Virus record (IMG/VR): IMGVR_UViG_3300045282_000083
Coordinates: 3,751-67,750 of that record
Reading direction: 5' to 3' (one strand)
Length of the DNA stretch: 64,000 nt
Source: a virus
Made by a program: the position numbers and the translations under genes. Below are positions 5,660 to 63,429 of this stretch, piece by piece (positions within the stretch are counted from its first letter, which is position 1; each line of letters starts with the position of its first letter). Under the pieces are notes generated by a model. That model was not told the origin of the DNA. It did not search any database and saw only the letters and a list, made by a program, of their open reading frames with translations.

Positions 5660-6046
5660 ATGAGCGACCGACCTACAAGAACTCAGCTGATCATAGCCCG
5701 CACGCTAAAGAAGGCAGAGTTCCCCGACCTCAAAGCAATCCTTTGCCAGGTCGTGAAGAGGATGGGCGGACCCAAGGGCATAGCCAAGATTATGCTCCAG
5801 GAGTTCGAGACAGCCAAGCCTGGCTCAATGCAAAGAGCCATGCTTTTGCAAATGGTCATGCAGGGCGCCAAGTCGGTCAGTGCCAAGGAGAATGCCAGAG
5901 ATATAGGTCTCATCTCGGACGACGATCTTGAAACCGAGATGCTTCGGTTAATCGGAAAGCTACATGGACCCACGTCTGGAACAGATTCTGGCGGAGAGCC
6001 AGCAGCGAACGGGGATAAAGCCCAAGAAGCGGCGTCGGATCAATAA
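5660..6046 (+). CDS. Putative terminase small subunit
   Basis: Small helical protein directly upstream of and overlapping terL; ISDDDLE motif near the C-terminus. Confidence 0.5.
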   Translation: MSDRPTRTQLIIARTLKKAEFPDLKAILCQVVKRMGGPKGIAKIMLQEFETAKPGSMQRAMLLQMVMQGAKSVSAKENARDIGLISDDDLETEMLRLIGKLHGPTSGTDSGGEPAANGDKAQEAASDQ

Positions 6047-7652
6047 CGCCCCGTCCGCAGACGAGATAGCCGACTTGCAAGAGATGGCTATCGAGCAGTT
6101 GAAGCGAAAGATTGACGGGCTGAAGTTATACCAGCCCATGCCAAAGCAGCTGGATTTCCATGAATCGCAAGCCAAAGAGCGTCTCATCCGAGGGGCAAAC
6201 CGTTCCGGCAAAACTACAGCCGCCGCCGTGGAAGTGGCGCGAGCTATTACTGGGAAGGACCCCAGGTATCCCCAAGAAGGCATCGCGTACATAGTGGGAA
6301 AAGACGGCAAGGAAATGGCCAATGTGATGTACAAGCTATTGTTCCGCGCGGGGGCGTATAAGATCATCAGGGACGCAAAGACTGGCGAATGGCGCGCCTG
6401 GAACCCCTCCAACGTCGAGGACTTTCTTAGGAAGAAAGAAACCAAGTTGGCGCCCCCTCTGGTCCCTCCAAGGTACATCAAGAACACAGTTTGGGACAAG
6501 AAGGGCGCGGAGCATCCGGAACTCATCAGGCTGCATAATGGATGGGATGTACATTGCTTCTCGTCCAACTCGCTGCCGCCGCACGGTACGCAGATCGACC
6601 TGGTGTGGTTCGATGAGGAAATCTTAAACCAATCGTGGTACACCGAAATGGCTGCCCGATTGGTGGACAGGGAAGGGTTCTTTGTGTGGTCAGCCACTCC
6701 ACAGGCTGGAACCATAGGTCTGTACGAGTTGCACGAGCGGGCAGAGAAGGAGGCCGCGCTTCTTCCAAAGGATAAAAGGCGTATAGAGGAGTTTGTCGTC
6801 ACCCTAGCGGAGAACTATCACCTCACGGACGAACAGAAGGCGTTGTTTGAAAGCAAGCTGTCGGCCGACGAGATTATGGTCCGCGTCCATGGCGAGTTCG
6901 CGGCCCAGGGATTCAGAGTGTTTCCAGAGATGAGCAAAACGTCTCACCTCTGCAAATACTTTCCGATCCCAGGAGATTGGACCACTTACGTAGCGATTGA
7001 CCCCGGTAGACAAACGTGCGCCGCATTGTTTGTCGCCATACCCCCGAACGGAGAATACGCTTATGCGTTCGACGAACTCTATCTGCACCAGTGCTCAGCT
7101 GAACTCTTTGGGCGAGAAATGGCCAGAAAGTGCAAAGGACGGGCAGTTCAAGCGTTTATCATCGACCATCAGGAAGGCCGGAAAGTTGAAGCGGGTTCGG
7201 GCCGTACGATTGAAGAACAATACAGTGACGCCCTTGACAGGCACCGAGTCGCATGCGCCAGAACCGGCACGGGCTTCACGAACGCGGCGGCGGAACCCCG
7301 TGCGGGCGTCGAAGCGGTGAGAGAATGGCTTCGTCCCAGAGAACAGCAGGGGCCTAGGCTTCGCATACTGGAGGATACGTGCCCATGGTTTCTCTGGGAA
7401 ATGACTCGGTATTGGTTTGAACGCACCAAGGATGGCATCACAGACAAACCCCGTGAAAGAGGTCCTGTACATCTGTGCGCATGCATACGGTACATAGTCC
7501 AGGACCGGCCGACGTATATTCCTCCAGAGGAAAAGAAGCCCCGCCCAAGTATGGCTTATCAGTTCGCAAAGAAGCTGATGAAGTCAGAAGACAAGGGCAG
7601 GGCTCTTAATCTCGGACCAGGCACCCTGACAATTGGAGTAGGATTGCAATGA
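5964..7652 (+). CDS. terL: Terminase large subunit
   Basis: Q motif (PMPKQLDFH), Walker A GANRSGKT, Walker B LVWFDEE, SATP coupling motif and RNase H-like VAIDPG. Confidence 0.93.
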   Translation: MDPRLEQILAESQQRTGIKPKKRRRINNAPSADEIADLQEMAIEQLKRKIDGLKLYQPMPKQLDFHESQAKERLIRGANRSGKTTAAAVEVARAITGKDPRYPQEGIAYIVGKDGKEMANVMYKLLFRAGAYKIIRDAKTGEWRAWNPSNVEDFLRKKETKLAPPLVPPRYIKNTVWDKKGAEHPELIRLHNGWDVHCFSSNSLPPHGTQIDLVWFDEEILNQSWYTEMAARLVDREGFFVWSATPQAGTIGLYELHERAEKEAALLPKDKRRIEEFVVTLAENYHLTDEQKALFESKLSADEIMVRVHGEFAAQGFRVFPEMSKTSHLCKYFPIPGDWTTYVAIDPGRQTCAALFVAIPPNGEYAYAFDELYLHQCSAELFGREMARKCKGRAVQAFIIDHQEGRKVEAGSGRTIEEQYSDALDRHRVACARTGTGFTNAAAEPRAGVEAVREWLRPREQQGPRLRILEDTCPWFLWEMTRYWFERTKDGITDKPRERGPVHLCACIRYIVQDRPTYIPPEEKKPRPSMAYQFAKKLMKSEDKGRALNLGPGTLTIGVGLQ

Positions 7653-8411: not shown

Positions 8412-8552
8412 ATGGACAAGAAACGCAGACGCCATGTGATTTGTGACATTCCACAAGGCGTTAAAGTGCTCAAGGCTTCAGAGACTACTCCCAAGGACGC
8501 CGTAGAGGCCAATAAGCTTCTCCGCAAATCTCTTGGTCTGCCGGAGAAATAA
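8412..8552 (+). CDS. Small hypothetical protein, not in the ORF track
   Basis: 46-aa ORF exactly filling the gap, TAATG-coupled to the portal. Confidence 0.5.
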   Translation: MDKKRRRHVICDIPQGVKVLKASETTPKDAVEANKLLRKSLGLPEK

Positions 8553-10789
8553 TGGATAGCCCTTTCCGCAAGCTTACTCAGCAGTGGCTGGCGAAAGTCA
8601 AGGCTGCTAAGGACCAGAAGAAGGAGTTCTCGCGCGACGGCGAAGAATGCCTCAAATTCTTTCGTGGACCGTACGATTTCATGTATGGCCTGAAAGAGGG
8701 CGTTCCTCAGTCTGGAGACTTCATCTTCGTCGGCGAGCCTGGACATATGCCCAGGCCATCCGTCGCCATGACGCTGAATAAGGTTGCGGAATGCGTCCAG
8801 ATTTTCGGTCCTACGCTATATCATAGGAATCCGATCCGGAAAGTCAATCCGCGCATGCTGCCGTCTCTGCCTCCAGAGGCGTTCGGTGATCCGAACGACC
8901 CGAACGTGCAGCAGATGGTACAGCAGATGATGGGCCAAGTCCAACAACAGCGGGGCAGGGACCAAACTCGTGCGTCCCTGCTCCAATGGTATCAGGACAT
9001 GACGCCCACCGCGACCGATCTGAAGACCGAGTCGCGCCAGGCGATTGACGAAGCGCTGATTTTCGGCATGGGGGTTTTGTGGCCACAAGTCTGGCAACCG
9101 CCAGCCTTTCCAGGCAGAATTGTTGCCAGCTGCTTCGATAGCGTTATCCACTTGCTTATCGACTCCGACATGGAGCATAGGAAAAAAGCCAAGTGGGTTG
9201 GTAAGATTTGCACTATTCCGGTCTGGGAATTTGAAGCTAAATTCCGCCTTCCTCCAGGAACTGTCAAAGGCACAGCTGAGAGCTATAGCCAGAGGGAGTT
9301 TCTGGAATCGGAAGGCGGATATGGGGAGATGGCCCGTAGACAAGGAAAGTCCAATGACCTGATTACGTATTACGAAATCTACAGCAAGATGGGGATGGGG
9401 ACTTTGCTGTCAGGTTCGGTTGGCACAGCTGCAAGTTACAGCTACAACGCCGACATAGACCCCGAGAACAAACAGATTGACAGGTTTGGGCAGTATTGCT
9501 ACCTGGTAGTTTGCAAAGAACTAGACTACCCAGCTAACCTGCCCAAGGAAATTTGGAACGACGAGCAGGCCATTAGGCAGGCAGTTCAATGGCCTGTTCC
9601 ATACTGGGCCGACGACGCTTGGCCGTTTGCTGAACTCGTGATTCATGACGTGCCCAATCAGGTGTGGCCGATGAGCCACTTCAAGCCTGCCATGGGCGAA
9701 TTGAAGTTCCTCAACTGGGCAGCGTCCTTCCTGGCCACACGTATGAAGAAGTCGGCCAGAGACTTGCTTGTAATCGACAAGGCCGCTTCCGAGGAAATGC
9801 GTAGGGCTTTGCTCTCCGGAGAGGACTTTGAATTAGTTGAGTTAAGCAAGTCGCACAATAAGACCATCAAGGAGGTCGTCGAGGTCCTGCAATTTCCTAA
9901 CGTCAATGGCGACGTGTTTAAAGTCATTGAATGGGTGACGCATCTGTTTGAGCAGCGCACCGGGCTTAGCGAGTTGATGTACGGCGAGTCAGCCCATCAG
10001 TACCGCTCCGCCGAAGAAGCCAACGTCAAGGGCCAGCAGCTGCATACGCGCACGGACGACATGGTCAATAAGACCGAAGACTGGATGAGCCAAGTAGCCC
10101 GCATGGAGGCGCTGTGCGCTCGTTGGGAGTTGGACCCTCAGAAGGACATTGCGCCAATCGGCGGGCCTGTTTATGCCCAATGGTGGCAGCAATTCATCAC
10201 TCCGAGCGATCCTACGGAAATTCTCCATCAGATCGAATATCGCATAGAGGCCAACTCAGCTAGGAAGCCAAACCGTGACAAGGACATGGCGGATGCTGAT
10301 TCGGCTATGCAGCAGCTGTTCCCTGTTCTCGTAGAAATAGCCAAGAGCGGCCAGACCGGCCCAGCTAATGCGTTGATTACCAAGTGGGCGGAATCCCACC
10401 AGTGGGACGCCTCTCAATTCATTCTGCCTGGACCGCCACCACCTCCGCCTCCGCCGCCAGATAAGCCCAAGATCAGCGTGGCGGTTGACTTCGCTACGCT
10501 TGATCCTGGAACCAAGCAGGCCATCTGGCAGCTTGCTGGCGTTCAAGCTCCTCCCCAAGAGCCGGCAGCAGATAATCAGGCCCAGCAGGCTCAAGAAATG
10601 GCCTTGGAGCAACAAAAACATGCCATGGAGATGCAGGCTCAGCAAGTAAAGGTGGAGCAGGAACGTCAGTACATGGCTCATAAGGAAGCCCATCATCAGC
10701 AAACTCTTCGTCATGCTCAGGAGAAACACAAGAACGACCTGAAGCTTGCCGAAGAGAAAGCCAAGCAAAAACCCCAGGGAAGCAAATGA
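8552..10789 (+). CDS. Portal protein (P22-like podovirus type)
   Basis: 745 aa after terL; ALIFGMG, EQRTGLSELMYG...SAEEA motifs; Gln-rich C-terminal coiled coil. Confidence 0.85.
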   Translation: MDSPFRKLTQQWLAKVKAAKDQKKEFSRDGEECLKFFRGPYDFMYGLKEGVPQSGDFIFVGEPGHMPRPSVAMTLNKVAECVQIFGPTLYHRNPIRKVNPRMLPSLPPEAFGDPNDPNVQQMVQQMMGQVQQQRGRDQTRASLLQWYQDMTPTATDLKTESRQAIDEALIFGMGVLWPQVWQPPAFPGRIVASCFDSVIHLLIDSDMEHRKKAKWVGKICTIPVWEFEAKFRLPPGTVKGTAESYSQREFLESEGGYGEMARRQGKSNDLITYYEIYSKMGMGTLLSGSVGTAASYSYNADIDPENKQIDRFGQYCYLVVCKELDYPANLPKEIWNDEQAIRQAVQWPVPYWADDAWPFAELVIHDVPNQVWPMSHFKPAMGELKFLNWAASFLATRMKKSARDLLVIDKAASEEMRRALLSGEDFELVELSKSHNKTIKEVVEVLQFPNVNGDVFKVIEWVTHLFEQRTGLSELMYGESAHQYRSAEEANVKGQQLHTRTDDMVNKTEDWMSQVARMEALCARWELDPQKDIAPIGGPVYAQWWQQFITPSDPTEILHQIEYRIEANSARKPNRDKDMADADSAMQQLFPVLVEIAKSGQTGPANALITKWAESHQWDASQFILPGPPPPPPPPPDKPKISVAVDFATLDPGTKQAIWQLAGVQAPPQEPAADNQAQQAQEMALEQQKHAMEMQAQQVKVEQERQYMAHKEAHHQQTLRHAQEKHKNDLKLAEEKAKQKPQGSK

Positions 10790-11370
10790 AACAGCGCATA
10801 ATCTACTCATCCTCCGGAGAGAGGACATACGAAATCAACGACAGAGTTGTCACGGAGGAATATTTCCACTCCGTCACTCAAGGCCAAGATGAGGCCAAGC
10901 TTAAGGATATGCTCAAGTCTGGTGTCCCTCCCCAGGGAGTCAGCGATTGTACCTTCATGAGAGACACGGCTAATGGACGACAATTCCAAGGACAAGAACA
11001 CATTGGCAATCAGTACCGAGCCGTCGCTGAGGAGCACGGACAGAATGTCACTGGAAAGAAATACATATCCGGCTTGGCCAGGTTCCCTGGCGATCCAGAA
11101 GCCTGGGTTGAAGGTCGGGGAGATGTTCAGAAGCTGGTCGAAAGTCGCGGATGGGGCTGCGAGGGCACGGTGAACGTCAAGAAGCGAGAGCTTCTTAATC
11201 CCCCAGAGCCAGGGCCAGAAGTTGCTCCGGATTTGCTAGAGAAATACACGAACGTCATAGCTGATGCCCAGCCTATGCCACACCTAGTGGACAGGGAAGA
11301 CTTGAAGGAGCAGGTCAAAGAACGTATCAAGCCCAAACATCGTCCCAAAGGCGTTACTAAAGCAGACTAA
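10786..11370 (+). CDS. Hypothetical protein following the portal
   Basis: ATGA-coupled; GLARFPGDPEAWV motif. Confidence 0.7.
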   Translation: MKQRIIYSSSGERTYEINDRVVTEEYFHSVTQGQDEAKLKDMLKSGVPPQGVSDCTFMRDTANGRQFQGQEHIGNQYRAVAEEHGQNVTGKKYISGLARFPGDPEAWVEGRGDVQKLVESRGWGCEGTVNVKKRELLNPPEPGPEVAPDLLEKYTNVIADAQPMPHLVDREDLKEQVKERIKPKHRPKGVTKAD

Positions 11371-12875
11371 TGCCATTCGCTCCATCAAATGGCCTGTATA
11401 GCCACATGGTCCACGCTCTAGGAGGATGGAGCGAGGCTCAGGAGGTGATTGACGCCATTAACGGCGCCGGATCGGGCACCGTGTCTAGCGTTGCTTTAGC
11501 GTTGCCAGTTAGCGTTTTTGTTGTGTCTGGTTCTCCGGTTACAACCACTGGCACTTTAACCGGATCGTTCGCCACACAGACGGCTAACACAGTGTTTGCC
11601 GGCCCATCGTCTGGTGGAGTGGCAACACCGGCGTTTCGATCATTGGTCTCAGCTGACTTTTCCGGTTTAGTAGTCAGCAGTTTCAATACCAGAACTGGCG
11701 CCGTAACCTTGACCTCTGGGGACGTAACCACTGCCCTGGGAGATGCGAACATTGCCTATACTGACGTAATCAATACATTTGCTGTTCGACAAATAATACA
11801 GTCGTCAACAGCAGCAACAACGTTACTTGTAAAAAACACAGCATCAGCTTCGCCATATGTTGCTGAGTTTCATGCAAAAGATGACAGCCCATATATATTT
11901 GCTGCTTTCAATGACACACTCTCATCGACAACGCCTGCGTTCGCGTATTTTGTGTGGAATACTGGAACTTTCTCGTCTGGTACTCCAGATGCACACGAGA
12001 TGCGGTTTTTCACGAATGGATTCTTAAGCGACCGCATGATAATTACCTCAAATGGAATAGTTGGCATTGGAGTCACTGTCGCTGCCGCTGGCGCCGGCAG
12101 CACATTAGATGATACTCAGCTTCAAGTTCACCAAACAAGGGTACATCAGGCATATGTATTGTCGAAGCACGCCATTAACGATGATCCTTATATAATGGCT
12201 GCTTTCAATGACACATTCTCATCGACAACGCCTGCGTTCGCGTATTTTGTGTGGAATTCTGGAACTTTTGAGCAGGGGACAAACGCCAATTCCGACATGA
12301 CGTTCTATACAAATGGTTTCTCTAACAACAGAATGGTCATTACTAAGGGCGGATTAGTTGGAATTGGTACTAATATAGCAGCGCTTGGGGGCGCCAATAC
12401 AGTTGACTCGACGCTCCAGGTCCGCGCCTTTTCGACTTCTACAATCGGAGTTATCGTCCAAGGTCGGGCTTCTCAAACGGCTGTCTTGCTGCAATTAAAG
12501 GGCGAGTCGTCTGTACAAACGCGAGAGCAAGTAGACTTGGATAGTGCTTGGGTGGATTCAACTGATGCCACCAGGAAGTCAAGATTTTTGCTTCGGGTGT
12601 GGGACACGGCAGCCCGCGAAGTGTTGCGCGGAGAAGCCAGCGGCACGGCCCCAGCAATCGGTTTTCTTGGCTCGGCTGCCGCTGTGCAGCAAGCCAGCGG
12701 GGCCAACCTCACCAACAACGTCGTTGCCAGCGGCACTACGGACCAGATCGACGATTTCACTAACTTGGTGGTCTACGCCACGGACGCCCAGGCCATCCAC
12801 AACGATATTTATCAATTAGCCAGGAAAGTCAAACAGATCAACGATGCTCTCAGGCTTTATGGACTATTGACCTAA
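11370..12875 (+). CDS. Tail fibre/spike protein with an internal ~99-aa duplication
   Basis: GTVSSVAL and SFNTRTGAVTL fibre motifs, RMIITSNGIVGIG-type beta repeats, C-terminal INDALRLYGLL. Confidence 0.8.
   Translation: MPFAPSNGLYSHMVHALGGWSEAQEVIDAINGAGSGTVSSVALALPVSVFVVSGSPVTTTGTLTGSFATQTANTVFAGPSSGGVATPAFRSLVSADFSGLVVSSFNTRTGAVTLTSGDVTTALGDANIAYTDVINTFAVRQIIQSSTAATTLLVKNTASASPYVAEFHAKDDSPYIFAAFNDTLSSTTPAFAYFVWNTGTFSSGTPDAHEMRFFTNGFLSDRMIITSNGIVGIGVTVAAAGAGSTLDDTQLQVHQTRVHQAYVLSKHAINDDPYIMAAFNDTFSSTTPAFAYFVWNSGTFEQGTNANSDMTFYTNGFSNNRMVITKGGLVGIGTNIAALGGANTVDSTLQVRAFSTSTIGVIVQGRASQTAVLLQLKGESSVQTREQVDLDSAWVDSTDATRKSRFLLRVWDTAAREVLRGEASGTAPAIGFLGSAAAVQQASGANLTNNVVASGTTDQIDDFTNLVVYATDAQAIHNDIYQLARKVKQINDALRLYGLLT
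11901..12268 (+). repeat. 71-bp direct repeat (11901-11971 and 12198-12268), 2 mismatches
   Basis: Read directly from the sequence; offset 297 nt. Confidence 0.9.
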
Positions 12876-28798: not shown

Positions 28799-29158
28799 AT
28801 GGAAAATTTTGCCGATGTAACTTCAGAAGACCTTCTCCGAAGTCGTGTCACACTTCTGGAGTGCGAAGTTAAGAGCCTGCGCGCACTGGTTGGCGCCCTT
28901 CCAAAAGCAGCTATGCCGTTCGAACCTGGAAATTTGGCCTTCCCTCCTGGAGATAATATTCCTAAGCGGTCAAACCAAGACTATAATGTCGGTCTGACAT
29001 TCGCTGGAACCAAGGACGGGGAGGCCATTCCTTATCGCGTGGTGAAGAACGATACGTACGCTCCACTGGTTGCCGGGCAGGAATTTGGCGGCGGAATCGT
29101 GGACACCAAGCTGACGGTGGTGTGCGAGCCAAACAATCTGTGCTATGTAGAGTTGTAA
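28799..29158 (+). CDS. Hypothetical protein
   Basis: GGAG SD. Confidence 0.6.
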   Translation: MENFADVTSEDLLRSRVTLLECEVKSLRALVGALPKAAMPFEPGNLAFPPGDNIPKRSNQDYNVGLTFAGTKDGEAIPYRVVKNDTYAPLVAGQEFGGGIVDTKLTVVCEPNNLCYVEL

Positions 29159-29159
29159 C

Positions 29160-30422
29160 ATGGCCGACATAGATGAACTTCAGAATCCGGAACTGTCCCC
29201 CCAGGGCCTAGCCCTGCTTAGGCAAATACGCGCCTCTAGAGGCCAGGCCGCGCCATCGGCTTTACAACTGCAAGCCCAGAATGTCACCCCTGGGGCCGCT
29301 CCTGCTCCGCCTGGGTGGAGAGACGTTCCCCAAGCTGGACAAACCCCTCCTCCTCCTCCAGGAGGCAGCTACACATCAAACCCGATTGGCGGCGGCATGC
29401 TTTCCGGAGCAGGTAGGGACGCCCTTATGGGCACCTCTCAGGCTACGCAGGCTCAGGACCCTCTCGCAGCCCTCCAGGAGCAAATGGGGGTAATAGAAAG
29501 GCTGTCAGGACGCGAGCAGCAGACTCCACAAATAGGCACCGTGCTTGATCCAGGGTCTCCGACATATGGACTGTTGGGCTTGGGCGGTCGCATGGTTGGC
29601 CCACAAGTGGCTCCCAGCCTTCGACCATTTGAAACCGACGTTCTCCAAGGCCAACAAGCCCTGGCAGCCAATAGGCAGCGCCCAACCGAAGCTTTGCTTG
29701 GCAGGCTTGGTGAAATGGGCCGGCAGGCAACGGCCCGTGGCAATCTGGCTCTGGAGGAAATGCGCCTGCGCGGCACTGGCGATCTTCCCGGCCAGCTACA
29801 AGTCAATCAATCGCAAATTGAGGCCAACAAACTGTCCACGCAGCAAGATTTGCAGCTGGCCAATGATTACAGAACATTCATGAACGACCCGGCCAATGGC
29901 CGCAACCGGGCTGAAAGACAGCGAGCCTGGGACGCTAGCAACATGCCAACTCCTGGATATGCTGGCGGGGCTCAGGCCCCCGAAGAGGGAGGTACTCCAC
30001 GGTCCAGAACCAGGCCATCAACAGAAACGACGCCAGAGTCTACAATACAATCGGCCTACGGCGACGTTGAGACTCGTTATGCCCCAGAGACTAATGGCCG
30101 GAGGGGGCCTATCCCGGCCGGAGACGCCACAAACAACGCCATAACCGAGATGGTGACACGTCTTAATCAAGACCCGCAATTCATTGGACAAAACCGGCGC
30201 GGCGTCATGGACTTCCTGACCTCTAAGTTTGGCCAGCTGGCCATGCAGGGCTGGGCCGAACAAGCCGCCAACAGCGGACTTAATGGACTAGTGTCCACTG
30301 CTCACGGCAGGGCCTTGCGGTCTTTGAATCCATCAGGATTTTCCAGGCTGCCCACCGAAGAGGAAATACGGACTGGGGTCGGGAGGCGGATCAATACGCC
30401 ATCTTTCCTTGGCCCGCAGTGA
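29160..30422 (+). CDS. Probable ejection/internal virion protein
   Basis: Low-complexity Gln/Pro/Gly/Ala ORF between ejection-type genes. Confidence 0.6.
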   Translation: MADIDELQNPELSPQGLALLRQIRASRGQAAPSALQLQAQNVTPGAAPAPPGWRDVPQAGQTPPPPPGGSYTSNPIGGGMLSGAGRDALMGTSQATQAQDPLAALQEQMGVIERLSGREQQTPQIGTVLDPGSPTYGLLGLGGRMVGPQVAPSLRPFETDVLQGQQALAANRQRPTEALLGRLGEMGRQATARGNLALEEMRLRGTGDLPGQLQVNQSQIEANKLSTQQDLQLANDYRTFMNDPANGRNRAERQRAWDASNMPTPGYAGGAQAPEEGGTPRSRTRPSTETTPESTIQSAYGDVETRYAPETNGRRGPIPAGDATNNAITEMVTRLNQDPQFIGQNRRGVMDFLTSKFGQLAMQGWAEQAANSGLNGLVSTAHGRALRSLNPSGFSRLPTEEEIRTGVGRRINTPSFLGPQ

Positions 30423-30425
30423 TTT

Positions 30426-30626
30426 ATGGGATACCGAATCTGGATTGTCGAGGACCCTCAAGGCAAACTGTGGCAGTTAACCACGGAGACAGCCGCCATT
30501 GAGGAGGCGTTGTACGTCTGGAAGTCGCCGAGATACAACCCGCAAGGCATTCCTTGGGAACGAATCGAACTTTTGCCTGAGCAGTTTCCGACAGGATTAA
30601 GGCAAATATTCGCCGAATCCCCTTGA
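30426..30626 (+). CDS. Small hypothetical protein
   Basis: Co-oriented ORF whose stop lies in the next -35 box. Confidence 0.5.
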   Translation: MGYRIWIVEDPQGKLWQLTTETAAIEEALYVWKSPRYNPQGIPWERIELLPEQFPTGLRQIFAESP

Positions 30627-30650
30627 CGATTTTCGGAAAATCCATATACT
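30623..30650 (+). promoter_or_regulatory. sigma70-like promoter with an operator-like palindrome in the spacer
   Basis: TTGACG-16-TATACT; GATTTTC-G-GAAAATC at 30628-30642. Confidence 0.75.
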
Positions 30651-30656
30651 GACACG

Positions 30657-30935
30657 TAGCCCCAGACTGGCAGACCGGGTTTGAAAGTCGTAACGCCACC
30701 CACAGCCGAGGCCATCAGGTACAGCGACAAGAGCGGGCAGTCTTAGCAGCCACGATATGCTCTCCCAGACTCCGGTCGTGGCGACCGACACCCAGCAATG
30801 GGTTTGCTAGGCGTTGTGTACGGATGCAAGCCGGGTGAACAACGTTAAAAAACCACTCTCGGCAGGGCGGACACCTCACGATAACGGGGACGACCCAACG
30901 CATCTGACTCCTGCACGGAGTCGGTGCGTTTCCTT
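30657..30935 (+). ncRNA. Unclassified structured non-coding RNA (~280 nt)
   Basis: Own promoter, no ORF of 60 aa or more on the transcribed strand, nested long-range helices, a GCAA tetraloop, pseudoknot candidates and a terminal hairpin. Confidence 0.65.
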
Positions 30936-30968
30936 CTCCTCCAAGGACCTGTACTCAGGTCAGCAGTC

Positions 30969-31250
30969 ATGAACCTGTCTGAAGCTGATCAATGGTTCTC
31001 AACAGTAGTATCCCATAGTAAGTCTACCAGGGATCATTGGATTACCAGTGTCTTCCCTGATCCTGGTACACCCTACTGGGTGTTCAGGATAACCTATGGT
31101 AAGAAGAAGCCGAAAGCAGTATTCAGACTGGTCAGGTCAGATGAAGTATCAGTAGATACCATCTGTGATGTAGCTACCAAGCTGACCAATGACCTACGGT
31201 GCCCTGCACACCTGAAAGCGTCAGATTGTCAGGTTCCACTACTGGACTAA
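30969..31250 (+). CDS. Hypothetical ORF in a CG-depleted tract
   Basis: ATG at 30969 with an AGGT SD-like element; anomalous dinucleotide composition. Confidence 0.4.
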   Translation: MNLSEADQWFSTVVSHSKSTRDHWITSVFPDPGTPYWVFRITYGKKKPKAVFRLVRSDEVSVDTICDVATKLTNDLRCPAHLKASDCQVPLLD

Positions 31251-31287
31251 CGGCAGCCTGCCGTGTACCTATATACGCTGGATAGCT

Positions 31288-34200
31288 ATGGTCTTCGATC
31301 CTAACAATCCGTTCGCCATTCAGGACCCTTTCAGTGTCTTTGGGCGCCAGCAAACAGCGGCGACGCAACAGACGATGCCTCCTCTTACGCATGAGGAGGA
31401 AAAGAGCCTGATGGACAAGATAGGAGCAGCTGGCTTGGGTGGGCTTTCCTTCATTGGAGGGATACTCAACAAGCCAGGCCGCGTGGTCAGGGGTCTGCTC
31501 GGCGGCACCCCACGAGAGGCGCTTAATGTCATTCCATTCTCTGACGCACTTGGTATCACTCGCCCGGAAGACGAAGTTCGCGGACAAGACCTCCTTGGGG
31601 CTAAGGATGCGCCCTTCTTTTCCCCAGAGGGCATTGCTGGATTCGGTCTTGACGTGGCAACGGACCCCCTTACGTACCTGTCTTTTGGTGGCCATGCTCT
31701 GTCTAAATTGGGACAAGCCGCTAAGCGGGCGTCAGTATTGCCAGAGACTGTTGCAGGTCGGGTGGCTGGTGTGGCGGGCTCTGACGCTTACCGTTTGGCC
31801 AAAGCAGCGAATCCGGCAGAATACGCCGCCAACCCCATCTTCGCCGCAGCGGACGTGGCCGGACAGAAACTTGGTGGACATATTGGAGTGGGCCTTCCTG
31901 GTGGTGGTAACGCTGCCACTATGGACCTTGGACCTCTCGGACGTGCGCTTGGACAAGGAGTTTCTACAGCCGCCTCATTCGTACCTGGGGGATCAGCTGC
32001 ACTTGACATCGCTGGACGCGGGCTGGGAGCCGCCAAGGGTCTATATAACCGGACAATTCCCCCATTGTTCGAAGCAGCTGTAATGGGAAGGCAGACCCCC
32101 AACGTCCAGGAGGCCGCACGGGGCATAACTGGGGCCATTCCTGGTGTCGAAGCCGGAGCCAGGGAGATGGGGATGGGCCTGGCCAAGCGGGCGGTAGAAA
32201 ACAGCCTGGCAGACGAAGCCGGCGGCAAGCTGATTCGCCACCTACAGGAACTGCCGCACGTCGATCCGTTTACAGCTGCTAGGGAAATCGGGAACTTTTC
32301 GCCGGAACAAGTCAACGCGGCGAAACAAATCGCCGACGAAATGTCTGGCACCTACCAGGATTTCCTCAAGAGGAGAGTAGCCGGGGGCCGCGAAGCACCA
32401 CTTTTAACTCCTCAAGAGCTAAGAAGTGGAGCCGGAGAGGGAACTCAGTTAGGCTACGCTTACCGCCAGAAGACGGAGCTAGAACCGCCCACGTTCCGGG
32501 ACTACATGCGTACGAAGTCGCCTTCGTTGGAAGGCGACGAGTTCCGGAAGGGCTGGACTGAAGGGCTGACGACCCATTCATTGAACACCATGGCCAAGGA
32601 GGACTTGTCCCTCGGTAAGAATGCCAACCTTTGGAATGATCCTGCTAAAATGGACGCATTCTCCAAGCTTAACCCCACGGAGCAGGTTAAGCAGGTCATT
32701 CTGGATAAATACCTGGGCGGTCAGAAGCTGGAAACGGAGATGACTCAGCTTCAGAAGGCCATCTCAGCCGATGAGGCGGCGCACAACATGGTTGTGACGC
32801 AGCCAGAGTTAGGTGAACAGCTTCTTGCTAAACAGGCCGAATATGCTGCGGTCAAGCGCCAGGCTGCGGCCCTTGCGGACATGAAGGTCAACAACTCCCT
32901 GCCTCAATTCCTCAATCATCCGATCAAGGACTTCGTGAAAAAAGTCACGATGGAGGAGATTAACTTCCTGAAACAGGACGGGATGTATACGGCCCTGGCT
33001 AAGTCTGCCGTGGCGCCGGGTGAAGGAACCATGCCAATCATGGAAGGTCTGGGCAAAGCCTGGAACCCCACGGAAACGGCAGGAGAAAGCATTACCGACC
33101 AAGCAGGCAAGCTGGTAGGCCACGAAGCCCCCCAAGGTGCGCAGGTGCAGATGGCCAAAGCCCTTGGTACGACAGTGGACAAGTTGTCCGAATTTCACGT
33201 CCCACAAGAGGTGGTGAACGATCTTAATGGCCTGTCCCGAGCGCGCAGCTACGCCGGCATTAATGACCTTGTGAAGATTTTCGACTCAGTTACCAACCTG
33301 ACTAAAGCCGGGCAAACCATGTTTCCGGCCACGGTCGTTCGAAACGCTTCTCAGGACATGTTTAACAAGGTTGTTTATGGCATGTTCGACCCGGCGTTTA
33401 GCAAGCTGGACCCACGGCGCTATACGCAGCCGATGGCAGAGTGGTACAAGATCGCCAACGGCGGCACGGTAGACGGCCTGGCTGAAAAGCTGGCGAAAGC
33501 CGGCGCCAACGGTTTTGCCGGTCTGAATGACGTTCAGGCGGCGGATAAGCTGCGCCAGATTCATGCCGCTTGGGACGTAAGTCGAAGTGGAGCAAAGCGG
33601 ACTGCGGTGGGTGCAGAGGAAATCATCGGCACGGCGAAGGCTCAAACCGGCCTGGAAAGCCTTATGCCCACTTCGGAGCAAGCTAATCCTTTGTATGCTT
33701 ACGGAAAGGGATTCAAAGAAGGCAGCTTTGCCCCCTCGGCTATACCCAAAGTGGCTGGAGTTGCTGGCCAGACAGAGGACGTATTCGCGCCAGTGAAGGC
33801 TGCCAGGTCAGCTAGTAGCGCGAGCGATAGCCTAATGAGGGGCAGTTCTTGGTATTCTAAGCTGCTCCAAGGGCACTCAGAAGAGAGCGCGTTCAAGGAG
33901 ATGATGAAGGCCCATTATGACTTTAGCAATATGTCTGGATTCGAGAAAGGAGTGATGAGAAGGGTTCTGCCCTTCTACAACTGGGCACGCCAGAACGTCC
34001 CGGCAGTTACCAAAGAGATAGCGGAGCTACCAGGAGGCGCCTTGGCAAACGCAGTCAAAGCCACGGTAGCCATGAAGGGCGAGCATCCCGGCTTTATCCC
34101 AGGGTACATCGGCGAGGGCGTTGCCGCCCCCATTGGGGAGGAGCAGGATGGAAAACAGCGATTTCTTACCCATCTGGGTCTTGGTTTCGAGGACCTTGGC

Positions 34201-34653
34201 CAACTTGCTGGTCCAGGTGGACCTCTTGGAATGCTCAATCCTCTCATCAAAGCGCCAATTGAGCAGGCTACTGGAAAACAACTGTTCACCGGAAGGGACA
34301 TTAGAGACCTTCATTCACGGCTTGGGGATTTGACAGGAGCGCCGCTTCCAGCCGTTGAGAATGCGCTTCTAAATTCGCCCGCAGGGCGCGTGATATCGAC
34401 TGCTGGGACGCTTGCGGACCCAAGGAAGACAGCGCTTGATAAAGCAGTGAATTTGATGACCGGAGCACGTCTATCTGATGTTGACGTAGCCTCTGCGCGC
34501 AAATCAGCGATTCTGGATTATATTCGGGAAGCTCTACGTGGTCCAGGGATATCTCGTTTTGAGGATATAGCGGTTCGTCGAGATCAGATTCCTCAATTAT
34601 CTCCGATGGAGCAGCAGCTGTTTCGCTTGTACCGGACTCAACAGGGTCGTTGA
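31288..34653 (+). CDS. Large ejection protein (LPD38-like C-terminal region)
   Basis: 1121 aa; DVATDPLTYL, HYDF...FEK.VMRRVLPFYNW, LNPLIKAPIEQATGKQLFTGRDI. Confidence 0.8.
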   Translation: MVFDPNNPFAIQDPFSVFGRQQTAATQQTMPPLTHEEEKSLMDKIGAAGLGGLSFIGGILNKPGRVVRGLLGGTPREALNVIPFSDALGITRPEDEVRGQDLLGAKDAPFFSPEGIAGFGLDVATDPLTYLSFGGHALSKLGQAAKRASVLPETVAGRVAGVAGSDAYRLAKAANPAEYAANPIFAAADVAGQKLGGHIGVGLPGGGNAATMDLGPLGRALGQGVSTAASFVPGGSAALDIAGRGLGAAKGLYNRTIPPLFEAAVMGRQTPNVQEAARGITGAIPGVEAGAREMGMGLAKRAVENSLADEAGGKLIRHLQELPHVDPFTAAREIGNFSPEQVNAAKQIADEMSGTYQDFLKRRVAGGREAPLLTPQELRSGAGEGTQLGYAYRQKTELEPPTFRDYMRTKSPSLEGDEFRKGWTEGLTTHSLNTMAKEDLSLGKNANLWNDPAKMDAFSKLNPTEQVKQVILDKYLGGQKLETEMTQLQKAISADEAAHNMVVTQPELGEQLLAKQAEYAAVKRQAAALADMKVNNSLPQFLNHPIKDFVKKVTMEEINFLKQDGMYTALAKSAVAPGEGTMPIMEGLGKAWNPTETAGESITDQAGKLVGHEAPQGAQVQMAKALGTTVDKLSEFHVPQEVVNDLNGLSRARSYAGINDLVKIFDSVTNLTKAGQTMFPATVVRNASQDMFNKVVYGMFDPAFSKLDPRRYTQPMAEWYKIANGGTVDGLAEKLAKAGANGFAGLNDVQAADKLRQIHAAWDVSRSGAKRTAVGAEEIIGTAKAQTGLESLMPTSEQANPLYAYGKGFKEGSFAPSAIPKVAGVAGQTEDVFAPVKAARSASSASDSLMRGSSWYSKLLQGHSEESAFKEMMKAHYDFSNMSGFEKGVMRRVLPFYNWARQNVPAVTKEIAELPGGALANAVKATVAMKGEHPGFIPGYIGEGVAAPIGEEQDGKQRFLTHLGLGFEDLGQLAGPGGPLGMLNPLIKAPIEQATGKQLFTGRDIRDLHSRLGDLTGAPLPAVENALLNSPAGRVISTAGTLADPRKTALDKAVNLMTGARLSDVDVASARKSAILDYIREALRGPGISRFEDIAVRRDQIPQLSPMEQQLFRLYRTQQGR

Positions 34654-35484: not shown

Positions 35485-36114
35485 TTACTCAATTGTCACC
35501 TCATAAAAGCCTTCGGAAAGCGGCACGGCCCACGTCGGTGGTGCCACTCTGATTTCAAGCGTGCCGGTTTCGGTTGTAGTCGCCCCCTCACCGATAACAA
35601 ACTCCCCGCCATTAATTCTTCCCATTAGTGTTCCGTATCCAATAAGACCGCCAAAGGTGGATGGCGCACCTTTTGGTCCAGTAAGATACTGTCCAGGAGT
35701 CTGCGGGAAGTGATCAATGGTTCCGGTTGCACGAATGTTTACCTTTCGATACTGCTTTCCTATAGACTTCCAGCCATCCTCCAGCCGCAGCTTGACAGTC
35801 TTTTTGCCGGGCTGTACGTGGAATTTCACTATCTGGTTAAACGGGATGTCAGCCTTGCCCAACACGCTCACCCCAGATAGCTTAACATCCTTCATTAGGC
35901 CCTTGAGATCACCACCTGGCGTGGTGATGACCACTGGATAGCCAATCAGCTTCTTGTTCTCCACGACGGATTTATCCACCTTCATCTCCGCAATGTCCAT
36001 CAAGGGCACTTTCAACTCCCCGTACTTCGTGGCTAGCGTGAATACGGCCTCCTTCTCCACTTGGAACATAAGTGAACTACCGTCCAGCAACATAAGACAA
36101 ATCGTTATCAGCAT
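35485..36114 (-). CDS. Hypothetical protein with a lectin-like C-terminal domain
   Basis: AAGGAG SD; own promoter at 36141-36169; ATGTID...GP.G...GTLMGRI..FVIGE resembles PA-IL-like domains. Confidence 0.55.
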   Translation of the reverse strand: MLITICLMLLDGSSLMFQVEKEAVFTLATKYGELKVPLMDIAEMKVDKSVVENKKLIGYPVVITTPGGDLKGLMKDVKLSGVSVLGKADIPFNQIVKFHVQPGKKTVKLRLEDGWKSIGKQYRKVNIRATGTIDHFPQTPGQYLTGPKGAPSTFGGLIGYGTLMGRINGGEFVIGEGATTTETGTLEIRVAPPTWAVPLSEGFYEVTIE

Positions 36115-36820
36115 GGCTTTCTCCTTTTGGCGATGGAAAAAGCCTAGCACATATTTTCCGTCTTGTCAAGTTCTTCATGAGAATTTTCTGGACCATGTTG
36201 GCAGTCCAAGGTTTGCCCGACCGTGAAGACCAGCCACGTTCGTTAAGCTTCTCGGCGATGCGATAGTGGGGCAGCAGGTTCATGGCGATAATCTGCTCCA
36301 ATATGGCCATTTCCTTCTCGTCAGTCACTAGAATCCCGCCTTGCCACTTGGTGCCATACGGAGCTATGCCACCACAAACGCCAGTTTGTGCCTTCTTGGC
36401 CTCCAGAGCCGACTTGGTTCGCTCTCGGATCATGCCCCGTTCCAACTCAGCAATAGCTGAGAAGATATGGAACATTGCTTTTCCGTAAGGGGAGGACATA
36501 TCAATGTGCTCCCGGAGTGAGATAAGGTGAATCTTGTTCTTGCACCAATTGTCTATTGTGACCACTGCATCGCACATGGACCGGAACAAGCGGTCGATTT
36601 TCACGACCACTACCGTGTCATCGGGGCGTAGCATGGCAGTCATCTTGCTACCAGCTGGGCGTTCGTCAAGCGCTATGCTGCCGCTCACACCGTCGTCAGT
36701 GTGCCATTGGAACCTGCCCCCAGTGGCGCTGTGTTGCATCCAATCGTCCAGCTGTTTGTTTTGGGCCGCGACCCCAAGGTCTTGCTTGTCAGTAGAGACT
36801 CGGACATAGAGGTGCAACAT
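36077..36820 (-). CDS. Serine recombinase (resolvase domain plus short recombinase-type C-terminus)
   Basis: YVRVSTDKQ, DDGVSG, RPAG, KIDRLFRS, AELERGMIRERT, GGIAPYG, IAEKLNERG..W. Confidence 0.92.
   Translation of the reverse strand: MLHLYVRVSTDKQDLGVAAQNKQLDDWMQHSATGGRFQWHTDDGVSGSIALDERPAGSKMTAMLRPDDTVVVVKIDRLFRSMCDAVVTIDNWCKNKIHLISLREHIDMSSPYGKAMFHIFSAIAELERGMIRERTKSALEAKKAQTGVCGGIAPYGTKWQGGILVTDEKEMAILEQIIAMNLLPHYRIAEKLNERGWSSRSGKPWTANMVQKILMKNLTRRKICARLFPSPKGESHADNDLSYVAGR
36141..36169 (-). promoter_or_regulatory. sigma70-like promoter
   Basis: TTGACA-17-TAGGCT. Confidence 0.6.
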
Positions 36821-37114
36821 ATCCCTAGCTCCAAGAGTTCTTGTGCGTGCATCCAAACCCAATCGCCATCCACTGGCACACTCCGCATTAGTTTGCCACA
36901 AATACATACGGATAAGTCATGGTTCTTGCTGGCGTCCCAACTCTCACCAAATCGCCGTCGCATGTGTTCGATACCTGCTGTGCAGGGCATTGGTTCTCCA
37001 GTATAGCCAAAATTTTGGCGTGCCATCTAGACCATTGTAATCCGTGCCATAGGTCGTCTTCGTAAACCAGTAAGTAAAGCTTATTTGCCAATAGGCGCGC
37101 TCTCTGCCTGTTGT

Positions 37115-42480: not shown

Positions 42481-42573
42481 GACTAAACCCTCGCAACATA
42501 GGCCAGCCAACCCGGCCACAGGCGAGGGGCTGGTGGGACAGCCGCTCACATGGGGTCGAAATCGAACCAAACA

Positions 42574-42601
42574 AACATACCACAAAAACGCGGGAAGTCA
42601 A
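42574..42601 (-). promoter_or_regulatory. Early promoter driving the amidoligase operon
   Basis: TTGACT-16-TATGTT with extended TG; near-duplicate of 44210-44237. Confidence 0.75.
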
Positions 42602-44209
42602 ATCAAATTATCCTTCTCCCCCGTAGTCTCGCAATATGCTGTCAAAGTGATCCGGATTAGGCCGCTGGACGAGGACGTTGTACAATGTCTCACCGTCCTT
42701 GAGACGGATGGCGGTGATTTTCCCATAGACGATGCTGCCGTCAGCCATTTCGACCGGGATAATGTCCCCTACTTGCATTTGTTGCCCCCCTTGGAACGCC
42801 ATTTGATTGCTTCAGCTTCTAGGAACCTGCGATGGAACTTCCGCAGCCAGTTTTCCATGCCGTTTCGATTCAGGCGCCGCGTGGAGATATGCTCCAATAC
42901 GCTGGCGACGGTCTGATCGGACAGCGGATTCTTGGGGTCGCTCGGCGTGAAGTCTGTTGATGCATAGACAACAGCTGGACCAACATAGCTGCTACGGCTT
43001 CTAACGCCATTGCTGGCCAAGTCTGAAGCTTTCCTTGTACCCCCTGGATAGCCGGTCAGCACAATGTGCATTGTCTGCTGGCTGGCTTCGTCCAATTGTC
43101 CAGACGGATAGGCCATGGATAACGAAAACGATGGCCCATTTTCATACGGACGCATACGTATCATCCGCGTTTTCATCGCGTACTCTCCTTTAAGCAGGCG
43201 AACAGCAAAAACGCACACACTAAGAACGCGACCAGATAGTCCACGTACAATTCTCCTTGCCCGGCACTGGGCGTGATGCCCCACGTTCACCATGGGACAT
43301 CACCCAAGGTCGCAACAAGCGCCCCTGGCTCCAGGGTGCATCAAAACCATTCCAAAATGGATTGTTCTTCCAGTCCTTGGTATTCCACGTATTCCGCGTT
43401 GGTAACTGGCAGCCCTTCTGTGAATATTCCAGAGGCCAACGCATCCTCCCCGCAGCCGTGGCAAAGGTAAATCGGGTACTTGCTGTCCACGGTCAGGTTG
43501 GTGAACGGCCGGACATTGTGACGCCGGCAACGTCCGTGGCAAGCTGGACAGTGGGCATCAGAGCATTCACAAGTCATGACTATACCTCCGACGTAGGTTC
43601 AGGAATGTGCTTAATCCATTTGCAATCCTTAACGTACAGGAAATCTTCCCCTGTACCCATGATTTCGCAAGTGTCGTTTTCTTCCCAGAGCACGACCTGA
43701 AGCCGGTTGCTCCACTTGTCCTTGACCCACCAGTAGCCAACTTTGTCAGGCATGTTCCCTCCTCGCGGGGTAAATGGTCCACAGAGCGATGTTAAGCAGA
43801 CAGAACGCCAGGAAATCGAACGTCCCCGATGCTATCGTATGAAACGTGCCGATGAGCAGCAAGGCGACAGACAAGGCTTGCATAGCGCCTCCTTAATGCA
43901 CTGGCCATACTCCCGGTGGGCCGGGAGAGTAGCGAAAGCATTACTAGGGCAGGCAGATCGTGGCCGGATTGAGCCACACTTTTGTCAATTCGGCTGCCAT
44001 TTTGTTAAGCTCGTCCGCCTCCTTGGCAAAAAAACCAGGATCGTTGCCACGTCCGATTGCAGCGTCACTGACATCCTCCTTGACTTGGGCAAACACCTCC
44101 ACGGACAAGTTGCGGAACTTGCTTATAAGTTCCAGGAGTTCAGAGGACAGAGATTGGGCTTTTTTTGCAAGGCTCATAATAGCTCCAAAGAAAAGTTTCC
44201 GAACGAACA

Positions 44210-44237
44210 AACATACCACAAAATCCGCGAAAGTCAA
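44210..44237 (-). promoter_or_regulatory. Early promoter
   Basis: TTGACT-16-TATGTT with an AT-rich UP region. Confidence 0.75.
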
Positions 44238-45648
44238 GAAAATTTTTCAGTGTACAGCCATCGTCCTTGGCCAATGGAGTTCCAGCGGCATAACACCGCA
44301 TGGAACTCTTCCTCCGCACGCAAGCACACTTCGCCCGTGCCTGTGCGTCCTGTTGGGATGTGCAGCCAATTAAAGGCAAATAGTCTTCTCATGTTCATGC
44401 CTTTCTGTTCACCTTCCGGTCTATATCGGCAAACCACATTGACCGTTTAATGCGCTTGCACAAGTGCCTAATCATGTCCTTGCCCCACGGATAGAGAGGG
44501 CTAAATTGTAGGCACTGTTGTTTAATGGCCTTGCGCACCTGGGGGTCCAAGCCTTCATAGTGGCTCAAGGCGCACAAAATAGTGCATATGTCTTTGTCGT
44601 TTAGACTGATCTTGTAGTCCATGTCACGTTCCTGCCTTTCTGGGAACCAGCTGTTCGCTGTACCCCCAAACGTAATTGCCGTTCTCCAGGCGTATACCGT
44701 ATTGCTTGCGCCCCTTCCATTCGCTAATCTGCTTGACGTTGCCACGTACAGAGAATTCCTTGGCATAGAGACCACGGAACCACACGGGGGCGTTGAGAGC
44801 GAACTCGCTCTTTAGCGGCCGGCCAGGGTAGCAGCCTAGCCAAAGCAGGTAATTACGGTATTCCAGCGCCTCAGCAGGCCCAAAACGCTGGCGAATATCG
44901 TATAGCTGTTGGGATAACAGCCAGCGTGTGCCGGGCCGGCTTATCCACGTTGCCGCCCATGTAGAAAACAGTTTGTCCTTGGGGGCATAGCGCCCTATTA
45001 TAGCTTCACCCATATGTCCTCCGTCTGGCGCGGGGCGCCACCCAAGCGCACTTGGATGGCACCACGAGTCACAACGAGTGGTCGTGCGGAACAACTTCGA
45101 ACCTATCAGCATCCCATACGTAGGGATAATATGGCGACCCATCTGGCTCTAGAATGTACGACGCTTTGGTTATTTTGGTCGGACTAATGGCATAATCCGT
45201 GCCACGTTCTACTTGGACTGCCACAGTATAAACACGGCCAACTGTCAGCCCTGCTGATTGGTGGCCACGGATGCACTTGACCTTAAGATACCTGGTCATT
45301 ATCAACCTCCTCTATGAATGAGTAAATCGCCGCAACGGCAATACATACGATGATTGTCACGGATACCAACGGTTCCATGATTCGCCCCTTATTCCCAAAT
45401 TGGTGTAGCGTGGCAGAACGCCTGCAACGCTGGATGTCCTGTTGGATTGACAATATCTTTGGCAATCTTCTCCGCATGCCTGGCACTAACTATGCCTTGT
45501 ACGGCACTGTCCAGATAGAACAAGGGTATCTGATGGTACATAGTGCCATGGATATCCTTGCTCTCCACTGAAGCGTAAATGGCGTACTTCATTGTCCCTC
45601 CGGGTTATGCACTCTCCGCAAGGCCGGGTCCCCCGGCCAAGCAGAGAA

Positions 45649-47917: not shown

Positions 47918-47945
47918 AGCATAGCACACTTTTTTTGCCTGTCAA
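47918..47945 (-). promoter_or_regulatory. First early promoter
   Basis: TTGACA-16-TATGCT with an upstream A tract. Confidence 0.75.
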
Positions 47946-62994: not shown

Positions 62995-63291
62995 TTAGCG
63001 CCCAAAAATCCGGTAGCCCAATCGTGGCGTCAGCGGCTGCCACGCCGGAACGTCCCTCTGGAGCCATCGACTGCCTTGATAGTTGTAATACGTATACGGA
63101 ACGTAATAGGTACTTGGCACGTAATATGTGCTGGGCACATAATAGGTGCTTGGTGCGTAATAATCGTAATACTGATACGTCACCGGATTGCCGTATACCG
63201 GGGAGCTAACGGGCTGGTTGCGCCAAAATCGGTGCTGCGCCATAGCCACTGTGGGGAGAAACAATAGGCAGGCCGCGATAATCCACTTCAT
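62995..63291 (-). CDS. Secreted Tyr-rich peptide with YYxPST repeats
   Basis: Signal peptide ending AMA; 18-bp tandem unit; ends RIFGR. Confidence 0.7.
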   Translation of the reverse strand: MKWIIAACLLFLPTVAMAQHRFWRNQPVSSPVYGNPVTYQYYDYYAPSTYYVPSTYYVPSTYYVPYTYYNYQGSRWLQRDVPAWQPLTPRLGYRIFGR

Positions 63292-63329: not shown

Positions 63330-63429
63330 ATTCTACCAGACTTGACCCCCAAAAGTCAACTTATTTTTGGGAAAAATCTCGAAAATGTCGAAAATTATAT
63401 TGACACCGATACTATAAACATGGTATTCT
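63330..63429. promoter_or_regulatory. Divergent promoter pair (lysis-like block versus capsid operon)
   Basis: Minus strand TTGACT-18-TAGAAT (63359-63330); plus strand TTGACA-18-TATTCT (63400-63429). Confidence 0.75.

Follow-up and report, generated by a model that had tools for sequence, protein, structure and literature searches.

In lambdoid phages the promoter PR' is constitutively active and is terminated immediately downstream at tR', which gives rise to the lambda 6S RNA or to the precursor of StxS, a short RNA of Shiga toxin (Stx) phages. In Sy et al. (PMC7547250), within the part concerned with these leaders, the StxS precursor has a length of 258 nucleotides (nt) and is processed to 74 nt, StxS can itself act as a regulatory RNA, and IsrK of Gifsy-1 is grouped among the same promoter-proximal terminated late leaders. 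Morons are characterised, in the relevant section of PMC3594210, as independent transcription units inserted between phage structural genes, with a deviant GC content as hallmark. Here we analyse a locus with features of both, namely the non-coding gap between the genes p66 and p93 of the virus record IMGVR_UViG_3300045282_000083, studied in a window of 64,000 nt that comprises bases 3751-67750 of this 67,750-bp IMG/VR record (rated 100% complete). We regard the gap as a new, orphan instance of a design already known, in which a short RNA is terminated close to its promoter, here together with moron-type signals. Our preferred interpretation, to which we assign a probability of roughly one half, is that of a lineage-specific regulatory junction, consisting of a promoter, an untranslated leader of ~275 nt and a terminator or attenuator, and lying in a variable slot of the structural block. 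A previous sequence-only reading had proposed at this place a stand-alone structured non-coding RNA (ncRNA) of ~280 nt belonging to a new class. The features in question, numbered from the first base of the window, are as follows:

30426-30626, plus strand: p66, a small conserved protein gene, whose TGA stop codon (30624-30626) is located inside the -35 hexamer of the promoter

30627-30968: the non-coding gap, 342 nt between p66 and p93

30623-30650, plus strand: sigma-70-type promoter TTGACG-16 nt-TATACT (-35 hexamer 30623-30628, -10 hexamer 30645-30650), matching the consensus at 10 of 12 positions

30628-30642, no strand assigned: perfect 7-1-7 palindrome GATTTTC-G-GAAAATC that fills the promoter spacer, a candidate operator

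near 30657, plus strand: putative transcription start

30657-30896, plus strand: untranslated body of the putative transcript, ~240 nt, GC content 57-61%

30897-30930, plus strand: hairpin of 14 bp with one bulge and a 5-nt loop, flagged as terminator-like and comparable to a terminator or attenuator

30931-30942, plus strand: pyrimidine-rich tail TCCTTCTCCTCC, directly 3' of the hairpin

30969-31250, plus strand: p93, an ORFan open reading frame (ORF), likely the first gene reached by read-through

The promoter and the closing hairpin are the only two features of the gap that are beyond chance. Both had been pointed out in the sequence-only reading, and both were found as described there. Taken alone, the hairpin folds with -21.1 kcal/mol at a z-score of -5.06, none of 200 shuffles being as good. 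Its inverted repeat is unique, no second copy being found in the window, and it is flanked by a T-rich tail on the plus strand only; this tail, together with the last two Ts of the stem, reads TTTCCTTCT. On the 3' side of p93, only a short 5-bp hairpin without a T-run was seen. As the phage has a serine recombinase gene, the hairpin was also considered as a recombination site, an idea that was rejected because its inverted repeat occurs only once in the window. It should be added that this gene is an ORF of 276 amino acids (aa) at 36077-36907 on the minus strand with a Resolvase (serine recombinase) domain (E 7.8e-36), which may represent an integrase, an invertase or a resolvase; no tyrosine integrase domain was found in the phage.

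Promoter-like sites matching at least 10 of the 12 consensus positions occur 15 times in the window, both strands counted, vs 5.0 ± 2.2 (maximum 9) in 30 dinucleotide shuffles, which means that sites of the quality of the one at 30623 are enriched about three-fold. Furthermore, two intergenic sites on the minus strand, at 47945-47918 and 45677-45649, combine TTGACA, a spacer of 16 or 17 nt and a TG-extended TATGCT upstream of genes, each of them being followed by a GC-rich hairpin and then by a Shine-Dalgarno (SD) sequence and a start codon. These two are probably the early host-type promoters of the phage. The overall enrichment and the position of these two sites in front of genes argue for the use of host-type promoters by the phage, and the site at 30623 is probably a genuine promoter of this type. 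A divergent pair of promoter-like sites, again with 10 of 12 matches, was observed at 63359 (minus strand) and 63400 (plus strand) in the AT-rich intergenic region 63330-63429.

The palindrome that had been noted in the promoter spacer is indeed there and perfect. Perfect palindromes with 7-nt arms standing 0-3 nt apart number 19 in the window vs ~15.6 expected, a frequency at chance level, and no second copy of this one was found there beyond chance when up to three mismatches were allowed. A role as operator is suggested by a single trait, the placement within the promoter spacer, and the palindrome is weaker evidence than either the promoter or the closing hairpin. Elsewhere in the window, a perfect 7-3-7 palindrome (63125-63141) overlaps the spacer and the -10 element of a promoter-like site at 63114-63143 (plus strand).

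The stretch is genuinely non-coding. A codon-usage score was trained on 25 long genes of the phage, which themselves score between 0.07 and 0.26. By this measure, none of the six frames is positive across 30630-30960; the values are 0.14-0.26 for the genes p420, p119 and p91, +0.086 for p66 and +0.010 for p93. The region had been described as having no ORF of 60 aa or more, which is correct for the plus strand and incorrect for the minus strand, where the following overlapping frames are present:

30715-30903, minus strand: ORF of 62 aa

30597-30791, minus strand: ORF of 64 aa

overlapping the region, minus strand: two further ORFs of 90 aa and 91 aa

All four appear to be non-coding, their scores in order of size being -0.10, -0.06, +0.03 and -0.08. 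The 62-aa ORF has no homolog and, unlike p66, p93 and p1121, the large gene downstream of p93, is absent as a called protein from a large protein collection. It is the lack of a coding score in every frame, together with the absence of homologs and of a protein call for this ORF, on which the non-coding status of the stretch is founded. A small protein gene read from 30903 to 30715 would have an SD-like AGGAG four bases before its ATG, located in the minus-strand reading of the hairpin arm; such a motif is a by-product of the palindromic arms of the hairpin. Neither Pfam nor PADLOC gave a match to the 62-aa product, no promoter-like site with at least 9 of 12 matches was found on the minus strand in 29500-32000, and the genes adjoining the gap are all on the plus strand. 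With its negative codon score in addition, we regard a minus-strand gene as highly improbable.

A non-coding stretch bracketed by a credible promoter and a terminator-like hairpin makes it plausible that a discrete or leader transcript of ~275-285 nt is produced from near 30657. As a regulatory junction, the locus might operate as follows. A host-type (sigma-70-like) promoter lying over the stop codon of p66 would start an untranslated RNA near 30657, and ~240 nt further on this RNA would fold into a very stable hairpin with a U/C-rich tail behind it. Some of the transcripts would stop at approximately 30931-30940, yielding a short RNA of ~275-285 nt, and the remaining ones would read through into p93 and p1121. 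A dimeric DNA-binding protein occupying the spacer palindrome would shut the promoter. No specific fold of the RNA body is required for such a mechanism. The sequence elements themselves, the lack of coding signal, the promoter enrichment, the high stability of the closing hairpin and the fact that relatives lack the unit are direct observations; the firing of the promoter, the ends of the RNA, partial termination and operator function are inferred.

Lambda Q binds between -35 and -10, and a candidate protein-binding site inside the promoter, here the palindrome, is among the likenesses of the locus to the lambdoid late leaders. As these leaders are portrayed in the portion of the literature cited above, further likenesses are a host-type promoter, an untranslated RNA of ~200-280 nt and a hairpin terminator directly upstream of phage genes on the same strand, and also the largely unconstrained sequence of the RNA body in the known cases. 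The lambda-type succession of a host-type promoter, a short untranslated RNA and a terminator before late genes is found here at the level of sequence. The differences are that only two genes, the last ones of the structural block, follow the unit and not the whole late region, and that it has no sequence or Rfam similarity to the described leaders.

Several points weigh against a regulatory junction. The promoters were scored against the sigma-70 consensus, whose validity for the host is an assumption; the promoter at 30623 has a 16-nt spacer and, unlike the sites at 47945 and 45677, no TG-extended -10 element. A regulator that binds the palindrome was not identified. The U-tract of the tail is interrupted (TTTCCTTCT), which is another difference from the lambdoid leaders and makes it weaker than that of a textbook intrinsic terminator. 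In the case of a late operon that is transcribed from upstream, a terminator at this place would also cut the expression of p1121, and partial termination or antitermination would be needed. Q-type antiterminator domains (PF06530, PF03589 and PF06323) gave 0 matches each in the 67,750-bp record, although a divergent analogue is possible; as no Q-family domain was found and the unit stands before the last two genes only, we do not file the locus as a member of the lambda Q system. Moreover, the public sequencing runs containing the stretch amount to one DNA run, labelled soil metagenome and probably the source sample, and no RNA run is listed.

The gap is situated near the end of the plus-strand structural block, downstream of the terminase, portal and tail-like genes. 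Genes of the plus strand run to 34653 and those of the minus strand begin at ~34.7 kb, p1121 being the last gene of the plus-strand block. The genes that define this setting are:

5964-7652, plus strand: large terminase, structural block

8552-10789, plus strand: portal, structural block

29160-30422, plus strand: p420, taken from the ORF list

31288-34653, plus strand: p1121, a large conserved protein of the structural block, used as synteny anchor

Besides these, the plus-strand block encodes tail-like proteins, an endonuclease VII-like gene and an HNH endonuclease, and the minus-strand block includes a helicase and the serine recombinase.

Relatives of the locus were collected through p1121. 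Forty proteins, the own record of the query included, were related to it at E ≤ 0.001, the closest (P0002-P0004, encoded on contigs of 18-67 kb) being 51-52% identical and P0005 (contig of 65 kb) 47%, and a profile of 18 sequences retrieved 111 loci, of which 25 came from IMG/VR, 80 from metagenomes and 6 from metagenome-assembled genomes (MAGs). In these 111 loci, p66, p93 and p420 had no tblastn match. Genes are tightly packed upstream of the p1121 homolog in most relatives, including the locus L061, whose homolog shares 58% identity over the N-terminal 160 aa (52% in the best segment). Of 91 loci with 700 nt or more of upstream sequence, 8 have an ORF-free stretch of at least 200 nt within 3 kb upstream, the longest being 293 nt; the rule applied (no plus-strand ORF of at least 50 aa) is a crude one, as it splits the gap studied here at a 52-aa TTG ORF and missed the gap of a further relative, L047. 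Between the p420-like gene and the p1121 homolog, the slot is occupied by small genes that differ from phage to phage and show no mutual similarity. Taken together, p66, p93 and the gap between them are an insertion specific to this lineage, located in a variable slot.

Such an insertion has much in common with morons in the sense of PMC3594210, being a gap between genes of the structural block that is absent from related phages, differs from its neighbours in GC content and possesses its own promoter and terminator-like hairpin. The absence at the same place in relatives extends over the 111 loci and is illustrated by the tight packing in L061. As for base composition, the RNA body has a GC content of 57-61% and p93 one of 45-48%, vs 51-56% in 31 of 32 windows of 2 kb. 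The locus departs from the classic arrangement, as given there, of a protein gene with a promoter on one side and a terminator on the other: in the present case p93, the only candidate cargo, comes after both promoter and hairpin, and the 240 nt separating these two encode nothing.

The same observations could be explained by a non-functional spacer, that is, leftover or decaying foreign DNA in a hypervariable slot, with signals that are fortuitous or the relics of a lost moron. The content of the slot differs in each relative, p66, p93 and the gap are absent from the 111 loci, the body has neither a fold nor a coding signal and its composition is atypical, all of which would fit. However, the phage is otherwise tightly packed on its plus strand, and the occurrence of a promoter with 10 of 12 matches and a hairpin with z near -5 in one gap, in the right order and on the right strand, is unlikely by chance. 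Protein remnants were not detected: a decayed gene in the gap was sought by comparing the slot proteins of L047 and L061 with 29100-31400 by tblastn, and it was rejected, the best match (E 0.006) falling within p420 and not in the gap. On balance we consider a spacer without function unlikely, though it keeps some weight.

A stand-alone, specifically folded ncRNA of ~280 nt that represents a new class was proposed in the sequence-only reading; it would act in trans or in packaging or regulation. All eight pairs of helix arms listed there are present, and so is the ACCCA-GCAA-TGGGT hairpin (at 30790). The structure drawn from them is not supported. The minimum free energy (MFE) of 30655-30935 (281 nt) on the plus strand is -99.1 kcal/mol with z -0.88, 39 of 200 shuffles being as good; the minus strand of the same stretch gives z -0.89, and the MFE structure of the unit has an ensemble frequency of 0.0004. 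The nested helices alone account for -43.0 kcal/mol, and a fold constrained to hold them reaches -91.5 kcal/mol, compared with -99.1 without constraint. Exact inverted 5-, 6- and 7-mers in 30657-30935 number 49, 16 and 2, vs 39.2 ± 7.9, 9.9 ± 3.9 and 2.4 ± 1.9 in 500 shuffles. With counts at chance, nested helices of 4 to 7 bp and crossing 5-mers can be picked from nearly any such sequence, and helices of this length hand-picked in 280 nt of 58% GC are not evidence of structure. The proposed secondary structure and pseudoknot thus correspond to chance expectation.

Sliding windows of 120 nt lead to the same result. Over the body (30620-30899) their z-scores range from +1.23 to -0.81, and only the windows with the closing hairpin reach -1.9 to -2.5; the background, 47 sense-strand coding windows of the same phage, has a mean of -0.31 and a standard deviation of 1.18. 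The RNA body therefore folds no better than coding sequence elsewhere in the phage. What speaks for a folded ncRNA is the order of promoter and then hairpin, more in keeping with a discrete transcript than with an operon junction, the raised GC content of 57-61% combined with the missing coding signal, and a Y-shaped element at 30744-30811 with z -1.90 (8 of 200 shuffles as good). As the whole unit, its ensemble, its body windows and its helix-arm counts all stay at background level, and as conservation and covariation are unsupported, we judge this explanation to be rather unlikely. A strong folding signal was observed outside the stretch proposed as ncRNA, in the p93 stretch 30940-31290 (plus strand), with an MFE z of -3.90 and none of 100 shuffles as good. 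Three overlapping 120-nt windows of this region have z from -3.2 to -3.6, and only one of the 47 background windows is at or below -3. The stretch could be the structured mRNA of a foreign small gene, or in part an RNA element.

Searches for known families and for homologs bear on the same proposal. Rfam 15 at gathering thresholds had 0 matches in the whole 64-kb window, and a permissive search (E ≤ 10) of 30400-31300 returned only a fragmentary s2m at E 9.9, with 14.2 bits vs a gathering threshold of 50. ARAGORN detected 0 genes for tRNA or transfer-messenger RNA (tmRNA), in line with the previous statement that neither type could be recognised. Because no Rfam family matches, a folded ncRNA here would be new. 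The gap stretch had no blastn match in the 'distant' mode against 50,697 phage records and none against 72,556 plasmids, and an exact 22-mer scan of IMG/VR gave 0 hits. When the related loci, first 25 and later all 111, were searched by nhmmer and blastn, nothing better emerged than a match of 21 nt (E 0.008-0.023) in the locus L023, outside the slot. A covariance model of 279 positions and 80 pairs, built on the single sequence with the fold of the sequence-only reading as constraint, matched only itself in the window and 99 loci, and nothing in 12 further loci or 4 related virus records; a model built on one sequence is weak, and its null result is not strong evidence of absence. The suggestion to collect homologs for a covariation test thus met with none in the 111 related loci, the 4 virus records and the phage and plasmid collections, so that covariation speaks neither for nor against the fold, and one orphan sequence is no basis for claiming a new class of phage RNA. 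In short, what the sequence-only reading had seen was literally correct and was over-read. Two other ideas, a retron and a defence or toxin-antitoxin system, found no reverse transcriptase domain and no PADLOC match for the neighbouring genes, respectively.

ColE1 RNA II is an untranslated RNA of a few hundred nt that is transcribed from a sigma-70 promoter, is controlled by the antisense RNA I and primes replication as an RNA-DNA hybrid cut by RNase H. The Rfam library includes phi29 pRNA, GOLLD, ROOL, group I introns and tmRNA- and tRNA-like families. A replication pre-primer like RNA II had been put forward for the gap, and a packaging RNA like phi29 pRNA may be weighed beside it. The locus shares with RNA II the general picture of a sigma-70-promoter-driven untranslated RNA of a few hundred nt, and with phi29 pRNA, GOLLD, ROOL and the group I introns that of a phage-borne non-coding stretch. 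It differs from RNA II in having about half its length and in lacking an antisense promoter, an Rfam match to RNAI, a replication region and a demonstrated structure, and from the Rfam phage RNAs in the lack of any match, pRNA included, at gathering thresholds in the window. Furthermore, the site is inside the structural block and beside no identified replication-type gene, the only one identified being the helicase, which is far from the gap and on the minus strand, and the skew profile of the window shows no GC-skew turn or inflection at the gap. With no folding signal either, the pre-primer proposal is not supported, and we take either function to be exceedingly improbable.

The gap of L047, the closest relative with upstream DNA, whose p1121 homolog is 64% identical over the N-terminal 160 aa, is an observation of its own. 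In the same slot, at L047:1150-1690, it leaves ~540 nt with ORFs of 55 and 80 aa only, folding with z -4.87 (none of 100 shuffles as good); promoter-like hexamers are present, as is a GC hairpin with an A-run and a T-run at its sides. A CyaR-like match on its minus strand is weak (E 0.64, well below gathering). The two gaps have no similarity by Smith-Waterman alignment, with scores of 19 and 20 vs shuffle means of 20.0 and 20.8. One might picture the unit as an RNA-only moron, a stand-alone ncRNA of ~280 nt that belongs to no described family, is driven by a repressor-controlled host-type promoter and shares its slot with the structured gap of L047. We find this distinctly doubtful; if true, such a moron and the gap of L047 would mark the slot as a landing site for phage regulatory RNAs.

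The neighbouring proteins were characterised as well. p1121 has no sequence match in Pfam, PHROG or PDB, and searches with the single sequence gave no tblastn match against phages and none in the IMG/VR scan. Its family comprises proteins of 1000-1400 aa, with 49 columns invariant among the 18 aligned. The six homologs on contigs binned into MAGs carry the labels Hyphomicrobiales, Actinomycetota, Isosphaeraceae, Gemmataceae, Chloroflexota and Planctomycetaceae. For p66, a single clear homolog was found elsewhere, namely P0043 (62 aa, 53% identity, E 3.2e-11), and none in the IMG/VR scan; the profile of p66 is absent from the 4 related virus records, and the protein belongs to no Pfam, PHROG or PADLOC family. 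The AlphaFold2 (AF2) model of p66 has a predicted local distance difference test (pLDDT) value of 76.4 and a beta-beta-alpha-beta-beta topology. With Foldseek, 0 PDB matches reached E ≤ 0.001; among the weak top rows were small proteins that bind RNA polymerase, namely T7 Gp2 (E 0.91) and YkzG (E 2.1, with template modelling (TM) scores of 0.56/0.69 for YkzG). As these rows are not significant, p66 was not accepted as an operator- or RNA-polymerase-binding protein, and the idea is kept as a lead only. p93 found only itself among 5.8 billion clusters, with a pLDDT of 54.7 in a single-sequence AF2 model.

As for repeats, the scan reported no tandem repeats in the gap. Two direct repeats were recorded elsewhere. 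One, of 83 nt (11889-11971 and 12186-12268, 94% identical), is inside a 501-aa gene (11370-12875), so that a structural-block protein is internally duplicated in part. The other, A-rich and of 43 nt (42570-42612 and 44206-44248, 77% identical, 1.6 kb apart), is in the minus-strand block and may be a repeated regulatory site.

The value of the locus is limited by its being a single orphan sequence with no sign of a defined fold. Promoters terminated just downstream are regarded, in the part of Sy et al. (PMC7547250) that treats them, as an under-explored source of regulatory RNAs. If transcribed as proposed, the unit between p66 and p93 would add one more case in which transcription from a phage promoter ends shortly after its start and leaves a short RNA, and its setting would be an uncultivated soil phage lineage without characterised relatives.

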